DNA from: an uncultured Erysipelotrichaceae bacterium | GTDB lineage: Bacteria; Bacillota_I; Bacilli_A; RFN20; CAG-826 | Assembly (NCBI GenBank): GCA_947166565.1 | Contig: CAMVEL010000007.1 | Coordinates: forward strand, 7,323-71,322 | DNA length: 64,000 nucleotides | Direction: 5' to 3' | Shown here: positions 50,532-58,122 of the stretch, piece by piece | Layout: each line of letters starts with the position of its first letter | Numbering within the stretch: the stretch's first letter is position 1 | Program-made: the position numbers and the translations under genes | The notes under the pieces: model-generated | The model's database searches: none | What the model was told of the DNA's origin: nothing | Seen by the model: the letters and a program-made list of their open reading frames with translations, nothing else

Positions 50532-50608
50532 CTATATTTGCATTTACCGCGTTTAAAAAACGCGCGAAATGCTGTATCCTTCTTTAGCCCTATTTAAGGA
50601 GTTTGCCG

Positions 50609-52093
50609 ATGGAAGAAAAAATGAATGATCAAGAATTAGCCCGCTTCAATAAGCTGGAAAGATATAAAGAACTTGGCGTCGATCCCTTTGGGAAGCGTTA
50701 CGAATGGAAAGACAAAATTGCCGATATTCGTGCTCAATACGGCGCTTTAAGCGATGAAGAACTTAGCGAAAAGCAGATTACTGTTAACGTTGCCGGAAGG
50801 CTAATGGCCATCCGCTTAATGGGCAAGGCCAGTTTTGTCAATTTAAGAGACGATACTGATGCCATCCAAGGTTGGATTGGACTCAACGTTGTCGGCGAAG
50901 AAGGCTATACGGTTTTTAAGCTTGCTGATACGGGCGATATCGTTGGTCTTGAAGGCACGCTCATGCGTTCTAGAACAGGCGAGCTTACCATCAGAGTTAC
51001 CAAGTTCACCCACATCTCCAAATGCCTTAAGCCACTCCCAGAAAAGTATCATGGCCTAACCGACACCGAAGAGAGGTATCGCCACCGTTACTTAGACATG
51101 ATCATCAACCCAGAGTCCAGGAGAATCGCGGTTTTACGTTCTCATATCGTTTCGGAAATCCGTCGTTATTGTGATGCCCTTGGCTTCTTGGAAATCGAGA
51201 CTCCGATTCTCTCGCCAATCGCAGGGGGCGCGGCCGCTAAACCATTCATTACTCACCACAATGCCCTCGATAAGGATTTCTATCTTCGCATCGCGACCGA
51301 GTTAAACCTAAAAAAGGCAATGATTGGTGGCATTGACCGCGTCTATGAAATCGGGCGCATCTTCCGCAACGAAGGAATCGATACCCGCCACAATCCGGAA
51401 TTCACCACCATTGAGCTTTATCAGGCTTATGGGGACCTCCGTTCCATGATGGAATGGACCGAAGGTCTATTCAAAGACGTCTGCGAGAAGGTTTTGGGCC
51501 AAGACAAAATCACTTGGGGAGAGGTCGAGATCGATTTCTCCAAACCCTTCCGTTCCATCTCCATGGCCGAAGCCATTTTGGAAAAAACCGGCATCGATTT
51601 CCGTGAAGATATTCCATTTGAAAAGGCCGTCGAACTAGCTAAAGAACACAAAGTTCCTCTTCAAAAAACATGGAATTCCACCGGTTATATCATGCAGGCA
51701 TTCTTTGACGAATTCGTTGAGAAGACGCTTATCCAACCGACCTTTATCCATACATACCCAATAGAGGTTTCACCATTAACCAAGAAGACCGAAGATCCAA
51801 GATTCGTTGACCGTTTCGAACTCTTTATCGGTGGGTTTGAGTTTGGCAATGCTTACTCTGAACTCAATAATCCCTTTGACCAGCTTGAAAGATTCGAAGC
51901 CCAACTTGCCGCTAGAGATCGTGGAGATGAAGAGGCTAACGATATCGACAATTCCTTCCTTGATGCCATGCGTTATGGCATGCCTCCAGCTGGTGGAATT
52001 GGTGTCGGTATTGACCGTATGTGCATGCTTTTCTGCAACGTCCAAAACATTCGAGAAGTCATCCTCTTCCCAACGATGAAAGACGAAAAATAA
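50609..52093 (+). CDS. lysS: Lysyl-tRNA synthetase, class II
   Basis: OB-fold plus class II motifs (FRNEGIDTRHNPEFTTIELY, GGIGVGIDRMCML). ATG 50609 lies 7 nt after AAGGAG. Confidence 0.95.
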   Translation: MEEKMNDQELARFNKLERYKELGVDPFGKRYEWKDKIADIRAQYGALSDEELSEKQITVNVAGRLMAIRLMGKASFVNLRDDTDAIQGWIGLNVVGEEGYTVFKLADTGDIVGLEGTLMRSRTGELTIRVTKFTHISKCLKPLPEKYHGLTDTEERYRHRYLDMIINPESRRIAVLRSHIVSEIRRYCDALGFLEIETPILSPIAGGAAAKPFITHHNALDKDFYLRIATELNLKKAMIGGIDRVYEIGRIFRNEGIDTRHNPEFTTIELYQAYGDLRSMMEWTEGLFKDVCEKVLGQDKITWGEVEIDFSKPFRSISMAEAILEKTGIDFREDIPFEKAVELAKEHKVPLQKTWNSTGYIMQAFFDEFVEKTLIQPTFIHTYPIEVSPLTKKTEDPRFVDRFELFIGGFEFGNAYSELNNPFDQLERFEAQLAARDRGDEEANDIDNSFLDAMRYGMPPAGGIGVGIDRMCMLFCNVQNIREVILFPTMKDEK

Positions 52094-52251: not shown

Positions 52252-52350
52252 GCTCTCTTCCGAAGGAAAAGAGGCGCATGACTTCTATGGTCGCACGGGT
52301 TCCCTCCCGAGGCGATCCGATTAGTCCGAAACTAGGAGGTGCAAAAGATT
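52252..52350 (+). promoter_or_regulatory. Structured rpsF 5' leader (candidate S6:S18 autoregulatory element)
   Basis: A leader of about 100 nt. It contains hairpin CTCTCTTCC-gaa-GGAAAAGAG and a CCCTCCCGAGG segment whose CCTCC can pair with the SD GGAGG at 52335-52339. Confidence 0.4.
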
Positions 52351-52638
52351 ATGGGAAAGTACGAGATTATGTACATCCTCTCTGCCGAACTCGACGAAGC
52401 CGCTCGTAAAGCAGAGATCGAGAAGCTCCACGGCATTCTTACCAACGATGGTATCGAAGTTAAGAACGTCAATGAGTGGGGAGTCCGTGATTTTGCCTAT
52501 CCGATCAAAAAGCAGACCAAAGGCTACTATGTCGTCGTCAAAGTTGCTGGCGAAGCCGAAGGCCTCAAAGAATTTGATCGTTTGGCCAGGTTGGATAATG
52601 CCGTTATTCGGTTCCTTATCACCGTCGACAAAGAATAA
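52351..52638 (+). CDS. rpsF: 30S ribosomal protein S6
   Basis: MGKYEIMYIL.... The ATG at 52351 follows AGGAGGTG. The track's GTG 52339 lies inside the SD. Confidence 0.93.
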   Translation: MGKYEIMYILSAELDEAARKAEIEKLHGILTNDGIEVKNVNEWGVRDFAYPIKKQTKGYYVVVKVAGEAEGLKEFDRLARLDNAVIRFLITVDKE

Positions 52639-52658: not shown

Positions 52659-53105
52659 ATGCTTAATTCCGTAGTGCTCGTTGGCCGCTTAACCCGCGAC
52701 CCAGAACTCCGTAAAACTCCGAACGGCTCTAGCGTTGCGAGTTTCCGCTTGGCTAGTGACGATTCCTTCTCGAAGAATGGAACAGAAAAAACGACAATCT
52801 ACATTGACGTTACAGTCTTTGGAGCCCGTGCTGACACCGTTGCGAAATATATGCGCAAAGGAAGCATGGTCGGCGTTACAGGTCGCTTAAGCCAAAGAAA
52901 ATACGTTTCCAACAAAACCAATACTGAGGTTACCGTGACAGAAATCATCGCCAACGGCGTTGAATTCATTGGGCCTAAGGCCCAAGACGCTGACGACTCT
53001 GGTTATCAACCAGACGTTCCAGCGCCATCTGCCCCGGCCACCCAGGTATCTGAATCATCCAACCTTGACGGGGTTGATATCGTCGACGACGACCTCCCCT
53101 TCTAA
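52659..53105 (+). CDS. ssb: Single-stranded DNA-binding protein
   Basis: MLNSVVLVGRLTRDPELRKT, an OB fold, and an acidic C-terminal tip DDDLPF. Confidence 0.95.
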   Translation: MLNSVVLVGRLTRDPELRKTPNGSSVASFRLASDDSFSKNGTEKTTIYIDVTVFGARADTVAKYMRKGSMVGVTGRLSQRKYVSNKTNTEVTVTEIIANGVEFIGPKAQDADDSGYQPDVPAPSAPATQVSESSNLDGVDIVDDDLPF

Positions 53106-53135: not shown

Positions 53136-53360
53136 ATGGCTTTTAAGAAAATGCGTTCTCGCAAGAAGCAGTGCTATTTCAAAAAGAACCACATCAAGTT
53201 CATCGATTATAAGGATGTCGAAACCCTCAAGAAATTCGTTTCTTCCGATGGCAAGATTACCCCTCGTTCCATCACCGGCACGAGCGCCAAATATCAGCGT
53301 GAACTTGCGGTTGCGATCAAGAACGCCCGTTATATGGGTCTTCTCCCAGTCGTTAAGTAA
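53136..53360 (+). CDS. rpsR: 30S ribosomal protein S18
   Basis: 74 aa ([22 protein letters not shown]...[17 protein letters not shown]). Confidence 0.95.
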
Positions 53361-53421
53361 ACTAGCCTGCTTGTCGCAGGACGAACCCGATTCCCCGATT
53401 TAGGACAAAACGGATTCACCT

Positions 53422-53470
53422 CGACGACGAAGCAACAAACCATCAAGACCGTCCCACGTGGGCGGTTTTC
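53422..53470 (+). repeat. Repeat copy A (GAAGCAACAAACC + CCCACGTGGG hairpin + T tract); acts as the rpsR terminator
   Basis: cgacgacGAAGCAACAAACCAtCAAGACCGTCCCACGTGGGCGGTTTTC. It differs from copy C at 1 of the last 42 nt. Confidence 0.85.
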
Positions 53471-53494
53471 TTATGTTTCTCCTCTTGCTAGTAG

Positions 53495-53622
53495 TATAAT
53501 TGGCTTGGGAATGATGTCTCCCATCTAGAAATAGAGAACCGCAATGAAGTGCTGATGACGTCTATGACTTGTTTTGTCATAGAAATCAGCGCTTTTGTTT
53601 CTATGGCAGATGGGAGGTATCG
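53495..53622 (+). promoter_or_regulatory. -10 box plus a rod-like ~110-nt leader that sequesters the antiporter SD
   Basis: The -10 box is TATAAT at 53495-53500. Stem P1, 53514-53526 (atgtCTCCCATCT), pairs with 53608-53620 (AGATGGGAGgtat), which contains the SD GGGAGG. The inner stems are 53527-53531/53598-53602, 53547-53556/53585-53594 (aagtGCTGAT/ATCAGCgctt) and 53561-53568/53576-53583 (TCTATGAC/GTCATAGA). Confidence 0.55.
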
Positions 53623-54813
53623 ATGAATATATTTCTGTCTTTGTTTATTATTTTTGGTGGTGGGATCCTCGGTGGGTTTTTATTTGAGAAGATCAAACTC
53701 CCCAAACTGGTGTGGTATATCATTCTCGGGATTCTTATTGGACCATCTTTGTTCAATATCGTTGATGATACGTTGCTGTCGGTTTCGTCTCATCTAAGGC
53801 AAATCGCTTTGGTCATCATATTGACCAGGTCAGGCCTATCTTTGAACATTAAGAACCTAAAGAAAATAGGGCGACCTGCGATATTGATGTGCTTTTTACC
53901 CGCTTGTTTTGAAATTGCGGGCATCACGATATTTGGCCCAATGCTCCTCGGGATATCCTATTTCGAAGCCTTGCTTCTTGGCTCGGTCTTGGCGGCCGTT
54001 TCGCCGGCGGTAGTGGTTCCGAGAATGATTCGCCTAATGGAAGAAGGATATGGAAAAGAACACTGCGTGCCCGAACTTGTGATGGCGGGGGCATCTTGTG
54101 ACGACATCTTTGTAATCGTACTTTTCTATTCGTTCAAGAATCTGATCGCAACGTCCACCTTTGACGCTTGGAGCGTCGGGCAAATCCCCATTTCGATCGT
54201 CTCCGGTGTCATTTTGGGCATCGGAGTAGGCTTCTTGATGGTTTTAGCCATTCGATACATGAAACTAAATAGAATCGTCCATGTCATTTTGATGCTCGGT
54301 CTCTCCTTTGGGATGCTCGCCCTCGAGAATGCCTTGAAACCGTATTTCAGCGTTTCGTCTCTATTAGCCATCATCGTCATGGCATTTGTGGTGGGCGTCT
54401 TTAAAAAAGAGGAAGCGAAGGAGATGCAGAAATCCTATAACGGCTTATGGCAAGGTTTTGAAATCCTATTGTTCGCTCTCGTTGGCATTGCGGTCGATGT
54501 TCGTTACGCTTTTTCAAAAGAAGGGGCAGTCATCGTTGGGCTGGTTTTCATTGCGTTGGTATTTAGAAGTTTAGGCGTGTTTTGCAGCATAATTGCAACG
54601 AAATTCGCTTGGAAAGAAAAACTATATATCGTCGTTTCTTATCTCCCTAAGGCGACCGTTCAAGCATCGATTGGGGCGATTGCTTTGTCCGAAGGCCTTG
54701 CTTGCGGCACGTTGGTGCTGACCGCTGCGGTGGTGGCAATATTGATAACCGCTCCATTGGGTGCGATATTGATGGATAACCTGAAAAACAAATTGCTTAA
54801 GAGGGAGGCGTAG
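53623..54813 (+). CDS. Cation:proton antiporter (Na+/H+ exchanger family)
   Basis: 396 aa, polytopic, beginning MNIFLSLFIIFGGGILGGFLFEKIKLPKLVWYIILGILIGP. ATG 53623 lies 5 nt after GGGAGG. The track's upstream TTG start lies inside the leader hairpin. Confidence 0.85.
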   Translation: MNIFLSLFIIFGGGILGGFLFEKIKLPKLVWYIILGILIGPSLFNIVDDTLLSVSSHLRQIALVIILTRSGLSLNIKNLKKIGRPAILMCFLPACFEIAGITIFGPMLLGISYFEALLLGSVLAAVSPAVVVPRMIRLMEEGYGKEHCVPELVMAGASCDDIFVIVLFYSFKNLIATSTFDAWSVGQIPISIVSGVILGIGVGFLMVLAIRYMKLNRIVHVILMLGLSFGMLALENALKPYFSVSSLLAIIVMAFVVGVFKKEEAKEMQKSYNGLWQGFEILLFALVGIAVDVRYAFSKEGAVIVGLVFIALVFRSLGVFCSIIATKFAWKEKLYIVVSYLPKATVQASIGAIALSEGLACGTLVLTAAVVAILITAPLGAILMDNLKNKLLKREA

Positions 54814-55224: not shown

Positions 55225-56016
55225 TCACGATCCCGTGGACTCGTAACGCCTGGCGCATAACGTCCAGATCAACGTGGCCAAAGCGAAGAAAGCAATCGCT
55301 GCTCCGACAATGATCAAGCTCAACAAGTAGGGGTTGTAACTCCCATAGAGCAAAGTATCGACCGGCAGGGAAATGAATAAGCCAAATGGCAAGATGAAGA
55401 TCAGGATGAAGCGGATCGCCTGGGGGTAGATGGCGATCGGGTATTTCGCGTAGATCGTGAAGTTATAGACGATTTGCAGCAGGGGTCCGCTTTTCTTGAA
55501 GATGAAGGCCAAGGAAGATAAAGCGATCTTGAAGGAAGTGATGATGATCGCCCCGAAGATCGCCCCGATGATCAAGACGAAGATCGCCCCAAAACTGACC
55601 GATGTCTGGAGGTTCAGCCCGCAGATGGTGATCATGGTGACCCCGACGATGATCTCGCCGAAACCATCGGGCTGGAACGTCTCCGCGAACATCTGGAAGA
55701 TCACGGGCACAGGACGCAGGAAGTGCCGGTCCATATCGCCCAATTGGACCCTTCGATAAGCAACCAGCCAGAATTCGTCGCTGAAGAGGTGATCCAAGGC
55801 GATCGGAAGCATCGAAAAACCATAGAAGAAACCGACTTCCGCGGGAGTATATCCCTTCAAAGAAGGGATGGCTTGGAGAATGAAGAAGATGGAACCCAAG
55901 GAGCAGGCATTGGAAATCAAAAAGGAAAGGATTGAGATGATCGAGTCCTTCTTATATTCCAAGCGGGACATCATGCTGCGCTTGATGCAGGTGAGATAAA
56001 GCTTCACGTATCGCAT
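55225..56016 (-). CDS. ABC-2-type transporter permease (uncharacterised ABC system)
   Basis: 263 aa, about 6 TM, last gene of a three-gene ATPase-permease-permease operon. Confidence 0.75.
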   Translation of the reverse strand: MRYVKLYLTCIKRSMMSRLEYKKDSIISILSFLISNACSLGSIFFILQAIPSLKGYTPAEVGFFYGFSMLPIALDHLFSDEFWLVAYRRVQLGDMDRHFLRPVPVIFQMFAETFQPDGFGEIIVGVTMITICGLNLQTSVSFGAIFVLIIGAIFGAIIITSFKIALSSLAFIFKKSGPLLQIVYNFTIYAKYPIAIYPQAIRFILIFILPFGLFISLPVDTLLYGSYNPYLLSLIIVGAAIAFFALATLIWTLCARRYESTGS

Positions 56017-56017
56017 C

Positions 56018-56878
56018 TTATCCTCCCTGCACCGTCACGATCTTGATCGCGTGGTTGAATAGCAATTTGCCGATGAGTTCCAATAGGACCCACCATCCGA
56101 AAGAGATGAGGATCACTTTTCCGCATTCGAGGTAATCGTATTTCATCATGAGGATGAGAATCGGGTTCTGGCTCATGCCCGCGAAGGGCATGTAGCTTAC
56201 GATTTCGCGGAAGATATTGGGGAAAAACGCGATCGGAAGCAAGGTGCCGGATAAGAAGGCGATCACCGTCGTCTTGAGCGCGTTTAAACCCCAGGCCGCG
56301 GTGGTGTAGAAGCACAAGATCCCGAAGATATAGGAAATCGCCCCATTCAATAAGCAGGCGAGGACGCTGGCGACGAGGAACAATAGGAAATGGGCGATGA
56401 AATCCCAGATTGAAGCCACGGGAAGATAGCCGATCCCAATGAGTACCCCGAGGCCCGCGGCGTACAAAGGAATCCCAAAGACCAGCGACATCATGAGGAA
56501 CGCTCCAATGTTCGAGGCGATGAATTTCCCGCGGTAGGAAATCGGCTTGATGAGGAAGTTTCCAATCGTCCCTTGCCGGATATCGCGGTTGATGAACCAC
56601 ACGGTATCGTCATTGAACGTCACGAAGCCGAAGATCGTCGTCAATACCACATAAACGATCATCTCTTTGTAGGTGAAGCCGTTGATCGAAGAATCGATCC
56701 CGCCTTCGCTACTTTGATAAACGGCGAGCCAAAGGAAAATGAGACAAGCCACTTCGGCGACGGTGACGATCGCCCAGGTGATGATGTTGAAGCGGTAGGC
56801 CATCACATCGATGGCCGACGCGCGGGCGAATGGCTTATATTTCCTCAGCCTACTCATGTTCTTCTTCCTGCTGGGCAA
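56018..56878 (-). CDS. ABC-2-type transporter permease (uncharacterised ABC system)
   Basis: 286 aa, polytopic. The start is 56878 or 56857 (MSRLRKYKPF), and either overlaps the end of the ATPase gene. Confidence 0.75.
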   Translation of the reverse strand: MPSRKKNMSRLRKYKPFARASAIDVMAYRFNIITWAIVTVAEVACLIFLWLAVYQSSEGGIDSSINGFTYKEMIVYVVLTTIFGFVTFNDDTVWFINRDIRQGTIGNFLIKPISYRGKFIASNIGAFLMMSLVFGIPLYAAGLGVLIGIGYLPVASIWDFIAHFLLFLVASVLACLLNGAISYIFGILCFYTTAAWGLNALKTTVIAFLSGTLLPIAFFPNIFREIVSYMPFAGMSQNPILILMMKYDYLECGKVILISFGWWVLLELIGKLLFNHAIKIVTVQGG

Positions 56879-57854
56879 GGATCTTCTTCACGACGTCTTC
56901 GATTGAGATGTCCGTGATTTTCATATCGATCGCGTGATATTGGGAGAAAGAGTATTGGATGATGTGCTCGAGCACGACCTTGTCCGCGTCAAATTTGAGC
57001 ATGACCTTATCTTTATGGTCTTCATCCAACTCCATCATGACGTCTTCGGAGAATGGTTTCACTTCATTCGGATCGACGCTCGGGGGGATGGTCAAGGTCA
57101 GGGTCTTGATGTTCCCGAACCGCCGCTTGATATTCCCCAACGGGCCATCATAGATGATCTTCCCTTTCTCGATCATGATGATGCGCGAGCAGAGGTTCTC
57201 AATGTCCGCCATATCATGGGTAGTGAGGACGACGGTGGTGTGGTATTTCGCGTTCAACGCGTGGATCGCCGTGCGGATCTTGTCTTTGACAAGGACATCC
57301 ATGCCGATGGTAGGTTCATCAAGGAAGAGGATCTTCGGGTTATGAAGCATCGATGCCGCCAAATCCGCGCGCATCCTTTGCCCTAAGGAAAGAGTGCGGA
57401 CCGGCTGATTCATGAATTCGTCGACGCCGAGGACGGAGGATAGGAATTGGATCCTTTCCTCATAATCGGAATCCGACACTTGATAAACCTCTTTGAGCAC
57501 TTTGAATGACTCGATCAAGGGGATGTCCCACCATAACTGGCTCTTCTGCCCGAAGACGACCCCGATGTCTTTGGCGACGATCCGGCGCTTCAGATAGGGC
57601 TCTTTGTCGTCGATCAATACCTTTCCGGAGGTGGGGGTGAGGATGCCGCACATCATCTTGATCGTGGTGGATTTCCCCGCGCCATTGGAGCCGATGTAGC
57701 CGACGATCTCGCCTTCCATGATGTCGAAAGAGACGTCATCGACGGCGCGGATCTCCGTGTATTTCCGGGAGAACAAAGTGGCAAGCATCCCAACGAGGCC
57801 TTTGCCCCTTATGGGTTTCCGAAAGATTTTGCTTAGGTTTTGGACTTGGATCAT
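56850..57854 (-). CDS. ABC transporter ATP-binding protein
   Basis: I place the start at ATG 57854 (MIQVQNLSKIF). Walker A is GSNGAGKST, the signature is LSLGQRMR, and Walker B is LFLDEPT. The 50 upstream codons of the track ORF run through repeat copy D. Confidence 0.88.
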   Translation of the reverse strand: MIQVQNLSKIFRKPIRGKGLVGMLATLFSRKYTEIRAVDDVSFDIMEGEIVGYIGSNGAGKSTTIKMMCGILTPTSGKVLIDDKEPYLKRRIVAKDIGVVFGQKSQLWWDIPLIESFKVLKEVYQVSDSDYEERIQFLSSVLGVDEFMNQPVRTLSLGQRMRADLAASMLHNPKILFLDEPTIGMDVLVKDKIRTAIHALNAKYHTTVVLTTHDMADIENLCSRIIMIEKGKIIYDGPLGNIKRRFGNIKTLTLTIPPSVDPNEVKPFSEDVMMELDEDHKDKVMLKFDADKVVLEHIIQYSFSQYHAIDMKITDISIEDVVKKILAQQEEEHE

Positions 57855-57916
57855 GTTGAGAATACCTTTGGTATCGTTCCTTATTGTACCGCAGCGGGCA
57901 AGGCAAAAGAAAGAAG

Positions 57917-57999
57917 CGTCCCTCGTGGACGGTTCTTTCGTCGTCGTGTGTCCCTCGTCCTGGAAATATTGGAAATCATCGACGACGAAGCAACAAACC
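57917..57999 (+). repeat. Repeat copy D: variant hairpin + CCCTCGTCCTGGA + CATCGACGACGAAGCAACAAACC
   Basis: CGTCC-ctcgt-GGACG (57917-57931), CCCTCGTCCTGGA (57952-57964) and CATCGACGACGAAGCAACAAACC (57977-57999). On the minus strand the hairpin is followed by CTTCTTTCTTTT, so it works as the terminator of the lipoprotein gene. Confidence 0.75.
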
Positions 58000-58122
58000 G
58001 ACATTATTCAGGCGACTACTATGTTTATAAATGTAGAAAGTGTGGCGCAGCCTGGACAAAACATATTAGCTAACCATCACTTTATCGTTTGCTTAAGTTA
58101 AGTCGTCCATAGTGGCGATTCT

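Follow-up and report, generated by a model that had tools for sequence, protein, structure and literature searches.

The leader preceding a cation/proton antiporter gene in the 64-kb stretch of DNA analysed here (the window) is almost certainly a fluoride riboswitch (crcB motif RNA, RF01734) that acts as an ON switch for that gene. A fluoride riboswitch leader upstream of a Na+/H+ antiporter gene is an arrangement of an already known kind and represents no new class of regulator. A cmscan search against Rfam, a check called for in a preliminary description of this DNA, matched RF01734 at 53498–53571 (+ strand, as for every feature below) at 37.5 bits, the gathering score being 34. The match covered the full length of the model (positions 1–64 of 64), with E-values of 8.9e-7 for the whole 64-kb window and 5.6e-9 locally, and the structured core lay at 53507–53564. 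The score exceeds the threshold by just 3.5 bits, a margin that is small because the leader has an 11-nt insertion formed by an optional hairpin, a P3 of 3 bp, and two loop positions at which A replaces G. The preliminary description had taken the leader to be a cis-regulatory RNA of the antiporter gene, and both the RF01734 match and the conservation described below agree with this.

The aptamer and its conservation

The three helices that define the fluoride riboswitch family in the account of PMC12667848, namely P1, the pseudoknot and P3, were all present in the match. In the Rfam alignment P1 is a hairpin at 53507–53522, made of GGGA (53507–53510) and UCCC (53519–53522), and its 8-nt loop, AUGAUGUC, includes the 5′ strand of the pseudoknot, GAUGUC (53513–53518). 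The 3′ strand, GACGUC (53557–53562), lies between a conserved UGAU and UA in the segment 53553–53564, and the two strands form six pairs, one of which is U-G. Between P1 and the linker there is a further hairpin, UCUA-GAAA-UAGA (53524–53535), which corresponds to an insertion of 11 nt when aligned to the Rfam model; a hairpin is reported for 31% of crcB RNAs (PMC3023696), and that of the window is probably the same optional element. The conserved linker AACC then leads into P3 (together 53537–53552), in which the Rfam alignment pairs GCA (53541–53543) with UGC (53550–53552) around the loop AUGAAG. The conserved flanks of this helix, AACCGC and GCUGAUGA, are present, the window reading AACC-GCA...UGC-UGAUGA. 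The preliminary description had overlooked the fold of the aptamer itself (a P1 of 4 bp, the pseudoknot and P3), a competitor of the rod-like structure discussed below.

Pairing was kept, with changes on both sides, in the orthologous leaders that the preliminary description had proposed to examine for covariation. Across 51 distinct homologous aptamers, 90% of cells were paired, compared with 77% in shuffles and 35–61% in slid controls, and 15 of the 20 pairs had both-sided changes, in an alignment that was N-padded, segment-anchored by hand and slightly inclined to structure, the bulge positions in 9-nt loops having been picked to favour pseudoknot pairing (plain MAFFT misregistered 8-nt against 9-nt P1 loops). 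P1 was paired in all 51, with one A-U to G-C change. The pseudoknot was likewise 100% paired, and five of its six pairs had changed on both sides (e.g. U-G/A-U/G-U and U-A/C-G). In the optional hairpin the middle three pairs were 98–100% paired, with 15–24 sequences altered on both sides, and the two outer pairs of P3 were 100% paired. Family membership, conservation and covariation are in this sense observed properties of the leader. Within the nearest clade the aptamer was nearly invariant, the covariation stemming from more distant relatives.

Among 80 species-level loci of antiporter homologues (44–99% identical), 68 had the aptamer directly upstream with a score that reached the gathering score, and four further loci gave RF01734 matches at 30–33 bits. 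With two of the 80 loci, which are without upstream DNA, left out, the total becomes 72 of 78 loci, covering Bacilli, Clostridia and Bacteroidota; the homologous leaders scored 35–52 bits. The TATAAT at 53495–53500, proposed as a promoter element in the preliminary description, is present and is plausible as a candidate −10 hexamer, from which transcription is predicted to start at about 53506–53508, at the base of P1. Of 63 distinct upstream regions of homologues, 43 had a −10-like hexamer that precedes the first base of P1 by 6–11 nt. The −35 element is poor, and no + strand promoter was predicted at this position by a consensus scan.

The terminator and the ligand-free fold

The leader contains an intrinsic terminator at 53547–53602, consisting of a lower stem (53547–53556 with 53585–53594), a GACG bulge, an upper stem (53561–53568 with 53576–53583), a loop (53569–53575) and a U-tract, UUUUGUUU, that extends into 53602. 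Its 5′ arm takes up the 3′ strands of both P3 and the pseudoknot (using 53550–53562), and the hairpin at 53547–53594 with its U-tract is an expression platform that shares sequence with this strand of the pseudoknot. Terminators overlapping the crcB motif have been described (PMC2864571), and transcriptional fluoride riboswitches, as characterised in PMC11077080, have a 6-bp pseudoknot in which the 3′ strand doubles as the terminator base. For a transcript ending at 53598, the MFE structure comprised P1, the optional hairpin and the terminator (−31.8 kcal/mol), compared with −15.9 kcal/mol for the aptamer-constrained fold; thus, without ligand, the terminator fold is ahead by 16 kcal/mol at the U-tract. 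Of 55 distinct homologous leaders, 54 had this hairpin and, after it, a stretch with six or more U in 10 nt, and in an alignment of a 14-sequence clade pairing amounted to 93% and 99% in the two terminator helices, which also showed compensatory changes. The preliminary description had recorded the 10-bp lower stem and the perfect 8-bp upper stem, with its 7-nt loop and the GACG bulge, correctly; what it missed was that these stems and the U-tract downstream of them are an intrinsic terminator and the main expression platform.

The rod-like structure was both the MFE and the centroid fold of 53507–53630 (ViennaRNA), and its energy of −51.1 kcal/mol compared with −27.5 ± 3.4 kcal/mol for 200 dinucleotide shuffles (z = −6.9), none of which was as stable. 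It is closed by pairing of AUGUCUCCCAUCU (53514–53526) with AGAUGGGAGGUAU (53608–53620), through 11 Watson–Crick and two G-U pairs, and G53513–C53621 lengthens this stem to 14 bp, with the SD sequence GGGAGG (53612–53617) inside it. Every rod element in the preliminary description was found where it had been placed, and the MFE fold agrees with its 13-bp closing stem holding the SD; its middle helix also exists, with the MFE register AUAGAG/UUUCUAU and not the AGAAA/UUUCU originally given. The view that the SD is hidden by default was borne out, as its probability of being unpaired was 0.02 in the ligand-free full-length fold. However, the closing stem, which had been labelled P1, is no helix of the aptamer, being formed when the aptamer 5′ half pairs alternatively with the ribosome-binding site. 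The OFF conformer of the fluoride riboswitch accounts in full for the rod. As a candidate RNA thermometer the leader was rejected, in that the closing helix (14 bp, −21.2 kcal/mol as a duplex) is not a weak, heat-labile SD helix.

The preliminary description had envisaged a signal that opens the closing stem, and so a possible new class, an RNA thermometer or a protein/sRNA target, with Li+, Na+ and c-di-AMP riboswitches named as known upstream of cation transporters. A new class responding to Na+, Li+, K+ or pH would suit the cation/proton antiporter encoded downstream, genes of this sort being regulated by Li+ and Na+ riboswitches according to PMC9646797, and a thermometer, or a target at which a protein or sRNA melts the SD helix, would suit an SD sequestered in a long helix. 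However, the leader fits a different known aptamer with all of its helices and their covariation, and its rod is already accounted for as the OFF conformer. When 53350–53750 was searched with 4227 Rfam 15 families (cmscan, E up to 10), the matches besides Fluoride were to snoRNAs and sRNAs at chance level (E ≥ 2.4, no other family being better than E = 2.4); there was no match to nhaA-I, nhaA-II, DUF1646 or ydaO, as far as their models are among these families, or to any thermometer family. We therefore regard a cation or c-di-AMP sensor as very improbable. The same goes for melting of the SD helix, which seems hardly credible: at physiological temperature it would not be expected of a −51 kcal/mol fold with a 14-bp closing stem, and the conserved pseudoknotted aptamer already supplies an opening signal. 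The main value of the analysis is thus one of correction, since a suspected new cation-sensing riboswitch is a routine fluoride riboswitch that can be annotated by a standard Rfam scan.

The ligand response and kinetic order of the fluoride riboswitch, like the control of translation and the role in the cell considered below, are what we infer; the anatomy of the terminator is observed. Transcription would begin a few bases upstream of G53507, and the first structure to form would be the aptamer, with P1 (53507–53510/53519–53522), the optional hairpin (53524–53535), P3 (53541–53552) and the pseudoknot (53513–53518 with 53557–53562). In the presence of fluoride, presumably bound as the Mg2+–F− cluster known from other fluoride riboswitches, the pseudoknot would be locked, so that the terminator 3′ arm could not invade it and RNA polymerase would read through the U-tract at about 53593–53602. 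Without fluoride, the 3′ arm (53576–53594) would strip the 3′ strands of P3 and the pseudoknot into the terminator hairpin, and transcription would stop.

A possible second layer of control

Only one aspect is mildly new: the full-length fold without ligand may hide the SD as well, and a conserved segment following the terminator could hold the terminator 3′ arm in the ON state. The ribosome-binding region (53608–53621, with the SD at 53612–53617) pairs in the ligand-free full-length fold with 53513–53526, a stretch made up of the loop and 3′ strand of P1 plus the four bases that follow. The SD duplex (−21.2 kcal/mol) was stronger than those of all 135 control ribosome-binding sites. In the clade alignment this helix was 80% paired, and the SD core and UCU/AGA base were kept in 12–14 of the 14 sequences. 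Among the 55 leaders the SD paired with the aptamer 5′ half in the MFE of 37, and real sites paired in 67% of cases compared with 21% when ribosome-binding sites of neighbouring genes were swapped in (Mann–Whitney p = 5e-4, kinship among leaders being uncorrected for). These results suggest that the hiding of the SD through the P1 3′ strand in the ligand-free fold is more than incidental. Part of the pairing is automatic, as CUCCC in the 3′ strand of P1 is by nature an anti-SD.

The post-terminator segment, GUUUCUAUGGC (53597–53607), and the terminator 3′ arm, GUCAUAGAAAU (53576–53586), are complementary, giving a duplex of −15.6 kcal/mol (z = −4.9 against shuffles). In the rod this segment pairs instead with AUAGAG (53531–53536), and the post-terminator helix appears in the aptamer-constrained fold. 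The helix was 99.4% paired in the 14 clade members, compared with at most 55% in slid controls, and the pairing was significant in 29 of the 55 leaders, where it is made of differing sequences.

A second layer, which has about an even chance of mattering to the cell, would operate as follows. A ligand-free full-length transcript would adopt the rod, in which pairing of 53513–53526 with 53608–53621 would block translation, whereas a ligand-bound transcript would keep 53513–53526 inside the aptamer, and the freed terminator 3′ arm would be caught by 53597–53607, leaving the SD open. The aptamer-constrained model frees the SD in part only (probability unpaired 0.29). The model of the ON state lies about 18 kcal/mol above the rod in energy, so that this state must be a kinetic trap or must use tertiary and ligand energy outside the model.

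We tentatively propose, at slightly less than even confidence, that antiporter-associated fluoride riboswitches have a two-level, four-element platform, in which one ligand decision gates both termination and, with the P1 3′ strand as anti-SD, translation, the post-terminator segment keeping read-through transcripts translatable. We came across no such platform for fluoride riboswitches in the literature, as met with outside any dedicated search. There is also nearly an even prospect that the fluoride riboswitch works by termination alone, the SD pairing and the post-terminator helix being by-products of no regulatory consequence, in which case any ribosome-binding site close by would be paired in silico with the A/U-rich flanks and with the CUCCC of P1, which resembles an anti-SD. 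The well-studied Firmicute fluoride riboswitches, as presented in PMC11077080 and PMC12667848, are all terminator-based, and 18 of the 55 leaders were without SD pairing. Furthermore, the GGGA/UCCC form of P1 also occurs in Bacteroidota copies without an SD (L070, L076), and it is not specific to antiporter genes, as a metagenome contig (L082), among the real-looking matches of a pattern scan, has this type of P1 upstream of a CLC-type gene. However, real ribosome-binding sites pair three times as often as swapped neighbours of similar SD strength, the 14-bp helix of the window reaches well past the SD core, and complementarity between the post-terminator segment and the terminator 3′ arm is kept despite sequence change (L019, L020, Clostridia, L080), all of which argue against termination alone. 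The leaders offer a compact natural case in which one aptamer may gate termination and translation initiation, and such dual gating would be of interest for co-transcriptional folding studies of the fluoride riboswitch, a model riboswitch.

The regulated gene and known fluoride riboswitches

The gene directly downstream of the aptamer (53623–54813) encodes a 396-aa antiporter of the Na_H_Exchanger family (Pfam PF00999, E 9.5e-44). Its relatives carry the JGI name 'NhaP-type Na+/H+ or K+/H+ antiporter', and its closest solved structures are of NHA2/SLC9B2 (E 7.7e-45). It is apparently monocistronic, the genes downstream being on the opposite strand. Fluoride riboswitches have been linked to Na+/H+ antiporters in the literature since 2012. 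Such antiporters are the second commonest gene class under fluoride riboswitches, after exporters, according to PMC11139923. The antiporter would presumably offset the cytoplasmic acidification and ion imbalance that arise from HF influx. The tight regulon link (72 of 78 loci, three phyla) points, at the level of sequence, to a dedicated role in fluoride stress for this NHA2-like subfamily of antiporters. No CrcB gene was found within the 64-kb window by an approximate E. coli CrcB query and a motif scan, which says little of the whole genome. It is remotely conceivable that in small-genome rumen Bacilli an NHA2-like antiporter is the main or only defence gene under fluoride riboswitch control.

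The Bacillus cereus crcB riboswitch, as described in PMC11077080 and PMC12667848, likewise has P1, pseudoknot and P3, a 6-bp pseudoknot whose 3′ strand is the terminator base, and ON logic. The leader of the window differs from it in having the optional hairpin between P1 and linker, a GGGA/UCCC P1 where the consensus is GGcG/CgCC, a P3 of only 3 bp, a 5′ half able to pair with the ribosome-binding site, and an antiporter gene in place of crcB. Clostridioides difficile, also a Firmicute, has a fluoride riboswitch over an operon for a ClC protein and an NhaP-type antiporter (CD0656-7; PMC11477304); there the antiporter gene is second, behind a CLC-type exporter, whereas in the window it is the sole gene of its unit. 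In the Acidothermus cellulolyticus crcB RNA, according to the R2R paper (PMC3023696), the SD is similarly hidden when ligand-free and freed by ligand, but that RNA is without a terminator, whereas the leader of the window adds SD sequestration, through the P1 3′ strand and loop, to a terminator. The Li+ (nhaA-I/II) and Na+ (DUF1646) riboswitches are also ion-responsive ON switches upstream of cation/proton antiporters in PMC9646797; they have unrelated aptamers and a cation ligand, whereas the ligand predicted here is fluoride.

A pattern scan of metagenomes for AACCGC N3-12 GCUGAUGA gave 121 matches, mostly in random coding sequence, of which about 11, too small a sample of fluoride riboswitches in general, looked real.

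Family assignment and fold of the leader

Scanning the whole window against Rfam at the gathering threshold gave two matches, one of which was the fluoride riboswitch (RF01734, crcB motif) at 53498-53571 (+), with the full model covered and a score of 37.5 bits, the gathering score being 34. In a permissive scan of 53350-53750, no family other than RF01734 was better than E = 2.4. The preliminary description had suspected a new ion-responsive riboswitch and had suggested an Rfam search of the leader as a check; as this returned a known riboswitch, a new cation-sensing class was unsupported and was rejected. The leader is an ordinary fluoride riboswitch, an already known kind of element.

The family is defined by three helices, P1, the pseudoknot and P3 (PMC12667848), which the leader has in common with described fluoride riboswitches. 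From the Rfam alignment and the sequence, P1 pairs GGGA (53507-10) with UCCC (53519-22), and its loop (53511-18, AUGAUGUC) contains the pseudoknot 5' strand (GAUGUC, 53513-18), the 3' strand being GACGUC at 53557-62; fluoride binding requires a six-pair pseudoknot (PMC11077080). P3 (GCA, 53541-43; UGC, 53550-52) follows a linker (AACC, 53537-40) and precedes a conserved segment (UGAU, 53553-56). The 11-nt insertion forming an optional hairpin (UCUA-GAAA-UAGA, 53524-35) probably corresponds to the hairpin reported in 31% of crcB RNAs (PMC3023696).

Folding of 53507-53630 gave a long interrupted hairpin, or rod, as both the MFE and the centroid structure, with an energy of -51.1 kcal/mol that is far beyond chance expectation (z = -6.9; dinucleotide shuffles, -27.5 +/- 3.4 kcal/mol). 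The elements from which this fold had originally been proposed were all found in the sequence, all on the + strand: the TATAAT hexamer (53495-53500), a 13-bp closing helix (53514-53526 with 53608-53620, extending to G53513-C53621) that encloses the SD GGGAGG (53612-53617, 5 bases upstream of the ATG at 53623), a 10-bp stem (53547-53556 with 53585-53594) and a perfect 8-bp stem with a 7-nt loop (53561-53568 with 53576-53583). The proposed fold is thus confirmed, as the OFF conformer of a fluoride riboswitch.

The TATAAT box ends 6 nt 5' of P1, and 43 of the 63 distinct upstream regions from homologous loci had a -10-like hexamer 6-11 nt 5' of P1, with a TGn extension in 22 of the 43. Transcription thus probably starts at the base of P1, in agreement with the promoter assigned previously; this argues against a start downstream of 53526, which had been named as a refutation of the original model.

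Conservation of the aptamer upstream of antiporter homologues

Searching the antiporter protein against one genome per species gave 80 loci (44-99% identity; numbered with the prefix L) from rumen and gut Bacilli, 'Mollicutes' and Erysipelotrichaceae MAGs (the lineage of the window), Clostridia, Tissierellia and Bacteroidota. In 68 of the 80, RF01734 reached the gathering score in the same orientation as the antiporter and directly 5' of it, and four more had matches of 30-33 bits at that position. As two loci had no upstream DNA, the total was 72 of 78 informative loci. The other six (L039, L044, L063, L067, L069 and L073), whose proteins are about 48-52% identical to the antiporter, gave no fluoride aptamer match, even at E up to 0.1, in the 3 kb 5' of the gene.

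For covariation, 69 aptamers (51 distinct) were parsed into segments and pairs were counted on an alignment that was anchored by hand, with bulge placement in 9-nt loops favouring pairing; on this basis 90.1% of cells held standard pairs, against 77.3% in shuffles (0/500 as high) and 35-61% in slid-partner controls, and the covariation score was 0.332 compared to 0.111 in shuffles. Across the 51 distinct aptamers P1 was 100% paired, as was the pseudoknot, with both-sided changes at 5 of 6 pairs: GAUGUC/GACGUC in the window clade, GAAGU-C/GACUUC in Clostridia, GAGGCUC/GGCUUC in L045 and GGGACU/AGUUCC in Bacteroidota. In the optional hairpin the three central pairs were 98-100% paired, both sides being changed in 15-24 sequences.

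The Bacteroidota aptamers of L070, L071 and L076, the top-scoring RF01734 matches (about 52 bits), carry the GGGACU/AGUUCC pseudoknot and have no optional hairpin; long hairpins and an SD-less gap of 75-175 nt come after them. The relatives L008, L010-L016, L018 and L028, whose proteins are about 85% identical to the antiporter, form just two canonical P3 pairs (GC...GC) around A-rich loops such as AAGAAUAA, yet their aptamers reach 36-39 bits. At L052 (2053-4122, a Bacillota MAG) a nitroreductase-family gene (PF00881, 2324-2863) lies between riboswitch and antiporter. A metagenome contig from an aptamer pattern scan (L082, OGKG01000152.1, 525-1722) shares the leader's aptamer subtype, with a GGGA/UCCC P1, optional hairpin and terminator, 5' of an apparent CLC-type gene, assigned by eye from its translation; if correct, this P1 type is not antiporter-specific. 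Other riboswitches near antiporter loci were, immediately 3' of the locus, a lysine riboswitch (L006, 4389-4566) and, upstream, SAM (L017, 2143-2235) and THF (L030, 1489-1580) riboswitches.

Terminator, predicted SD sequestration and a post-terminator helix

The two inner stems of the rod are an intrinsic terminator. Its 5' arm (53547-53568) contains the 3' strands of both P3 and the pseudoknot, and UUUUGUUU comes after its 3' arm (53576-53594). A transcript ending at 53598 folded into P1, the optional hairpin and the terminator (-31.8 kcal/mol), compared to -15.9 kcal/mol when constrained to the aptamer, and therefore the terminator wins without ligand energy. Of 55 distinct homologous leaders, 54 were arranged in this way and had 6 or more U among the 10 nt that follow the stem; in the 14-sequence window clade, pairing in the terminator helices was 93% and 99% and compensatory changes were present. 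The predicted platform is of standard ON-switch design; fluoride riboswitches upregulate fluoride-response genes. Terminators overlapping the crcB motif were noted at its first description (PMC2864571), and in transcriptional fluoride riboswitches the pseudoknot 3' strand forms the terminator base (PMC11077080).

In the absence of ligand, full-length transcripts would adopt the rod, in which the terminator is formed and the ribosome-binding site is paired to the 5' half of the aptamer (the P1 loop and 3' strand plus the four bases that follow). This SD helix cannot coexist with the aptamer. The proposed burial of the SD in the closing stem was borne out, its mean P(unpaired) being 0.02 in the unconstrained fold, compared to 0.29 with the P1, P3 and pseudoknot strands imposed, and the MFE structures of 37/55 distinct leaders had at least 4 SD bases paired with the aptamer 5' half. 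To control for CUCCC being a natural anti-SD, the leaders were also given 135 ribosome-binding sites of similar SD strength taken from neighbouring genes. Pairing occurred for 67% of real sites but only 21% of swapped sites, with duplex energies of -11.1 and -9.5 kcal/mol respectively (Mann-Whitney p = 5e-4, phylogeny ignored), and none of the 135 reached that of the window (-21.2 kcal/mol). Pairing of the SD helix in the clade was 80%, and 12-14 of the 14 sequences retained its SD core and UCU/AGA base.

Immediately 3' of the U-tract, positions 53597-53607 (GUUUCUAUGGC) are complementary to 53576-53586 of the terminator 3' arm (-15.6 kcal/mol; z = -4.9 against shuffles). Such complementarity was significant in 29/55 leaders, including ones of differing sequence (L019, L020, L080 and Clostridial GCAGAAAU/AUUUCUGC); in the clade the helix was 99.4% paired, compared to at most 55% for slid controls, and it formed spontaneously in the aptamer-constrained fold. 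In fluoride-bound read-through transcripts it may keep the terminator 3' arm off the pseudoknot, so that the aptamer would persist and the SD stay free. The ON model, with ligand and tertiary energy left outside it, is less stable than the rod by about 18 kcal/mol, and the ON state therefore has to be a kinetic one or to draw its stability from ligand and tertiary energy.

Gene association and genomic setting

Among the gene classes associated with fluoride riboswitches, Na+/H+ antiporters rank next in frequency to the exporters (Fluc/CrcB and CLC-F) and are thought to aid pH homeostasis under HF influx (PMC11139923). In C. difficile, as in the window, a fluoride riboswitch lies 5' of an antiporter (NhaP-type), although that unit also has a ClC protein (PMC11477304), and terminator-type and SD-sequestering crcB RNAs were both drawn in 2011 (PMC3023696). 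Thus the class, architecture, optional hairpin, platform type and gene association are all already known from the cited literature. A terminator combined with P1-strand SD sequestration and a post-terminator holding helix was not found described there; this combination, of modest interest, is plausible, and we propose it tentatively.

The antiporter (53623-54813, +; 396 aa) matched Na_H_Exchanger (PF00999, E 9.5e-44). Its metagenomic relatives, which are numerous, carry the annotation NhaP-type Na+/H+ or K+/H+ antiporter, yet the closest solved structures by sequence were of eukaryotic NHA2/SLC9B2 (E 7.7e-45, nearly full length), with NapA and MjNhaP1 well behind. Upstream lie a class II aminoacyl-tRNA synthetase (Lys/Asn/Asp type, 50603-52093), rpsF (52339-52638), ssb (52659-53105) and rpsR (53136-53360); as rpsF-ssb-rpsR end in their own terminator (53445-53469) just before the riboswitch promoter, and the genes 3' of the antiporter are on the opposite strand, the antiporter apparently forms a separate transcription unit. 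Convergent with it is an ABC-2 type transporter operon (55225-58004, -) with two PF06182 permeases and an ABC ATPase. The Rfam scan also placed a bacterial small SRP RNA at 2580-2665 (-; 51.8 bits).
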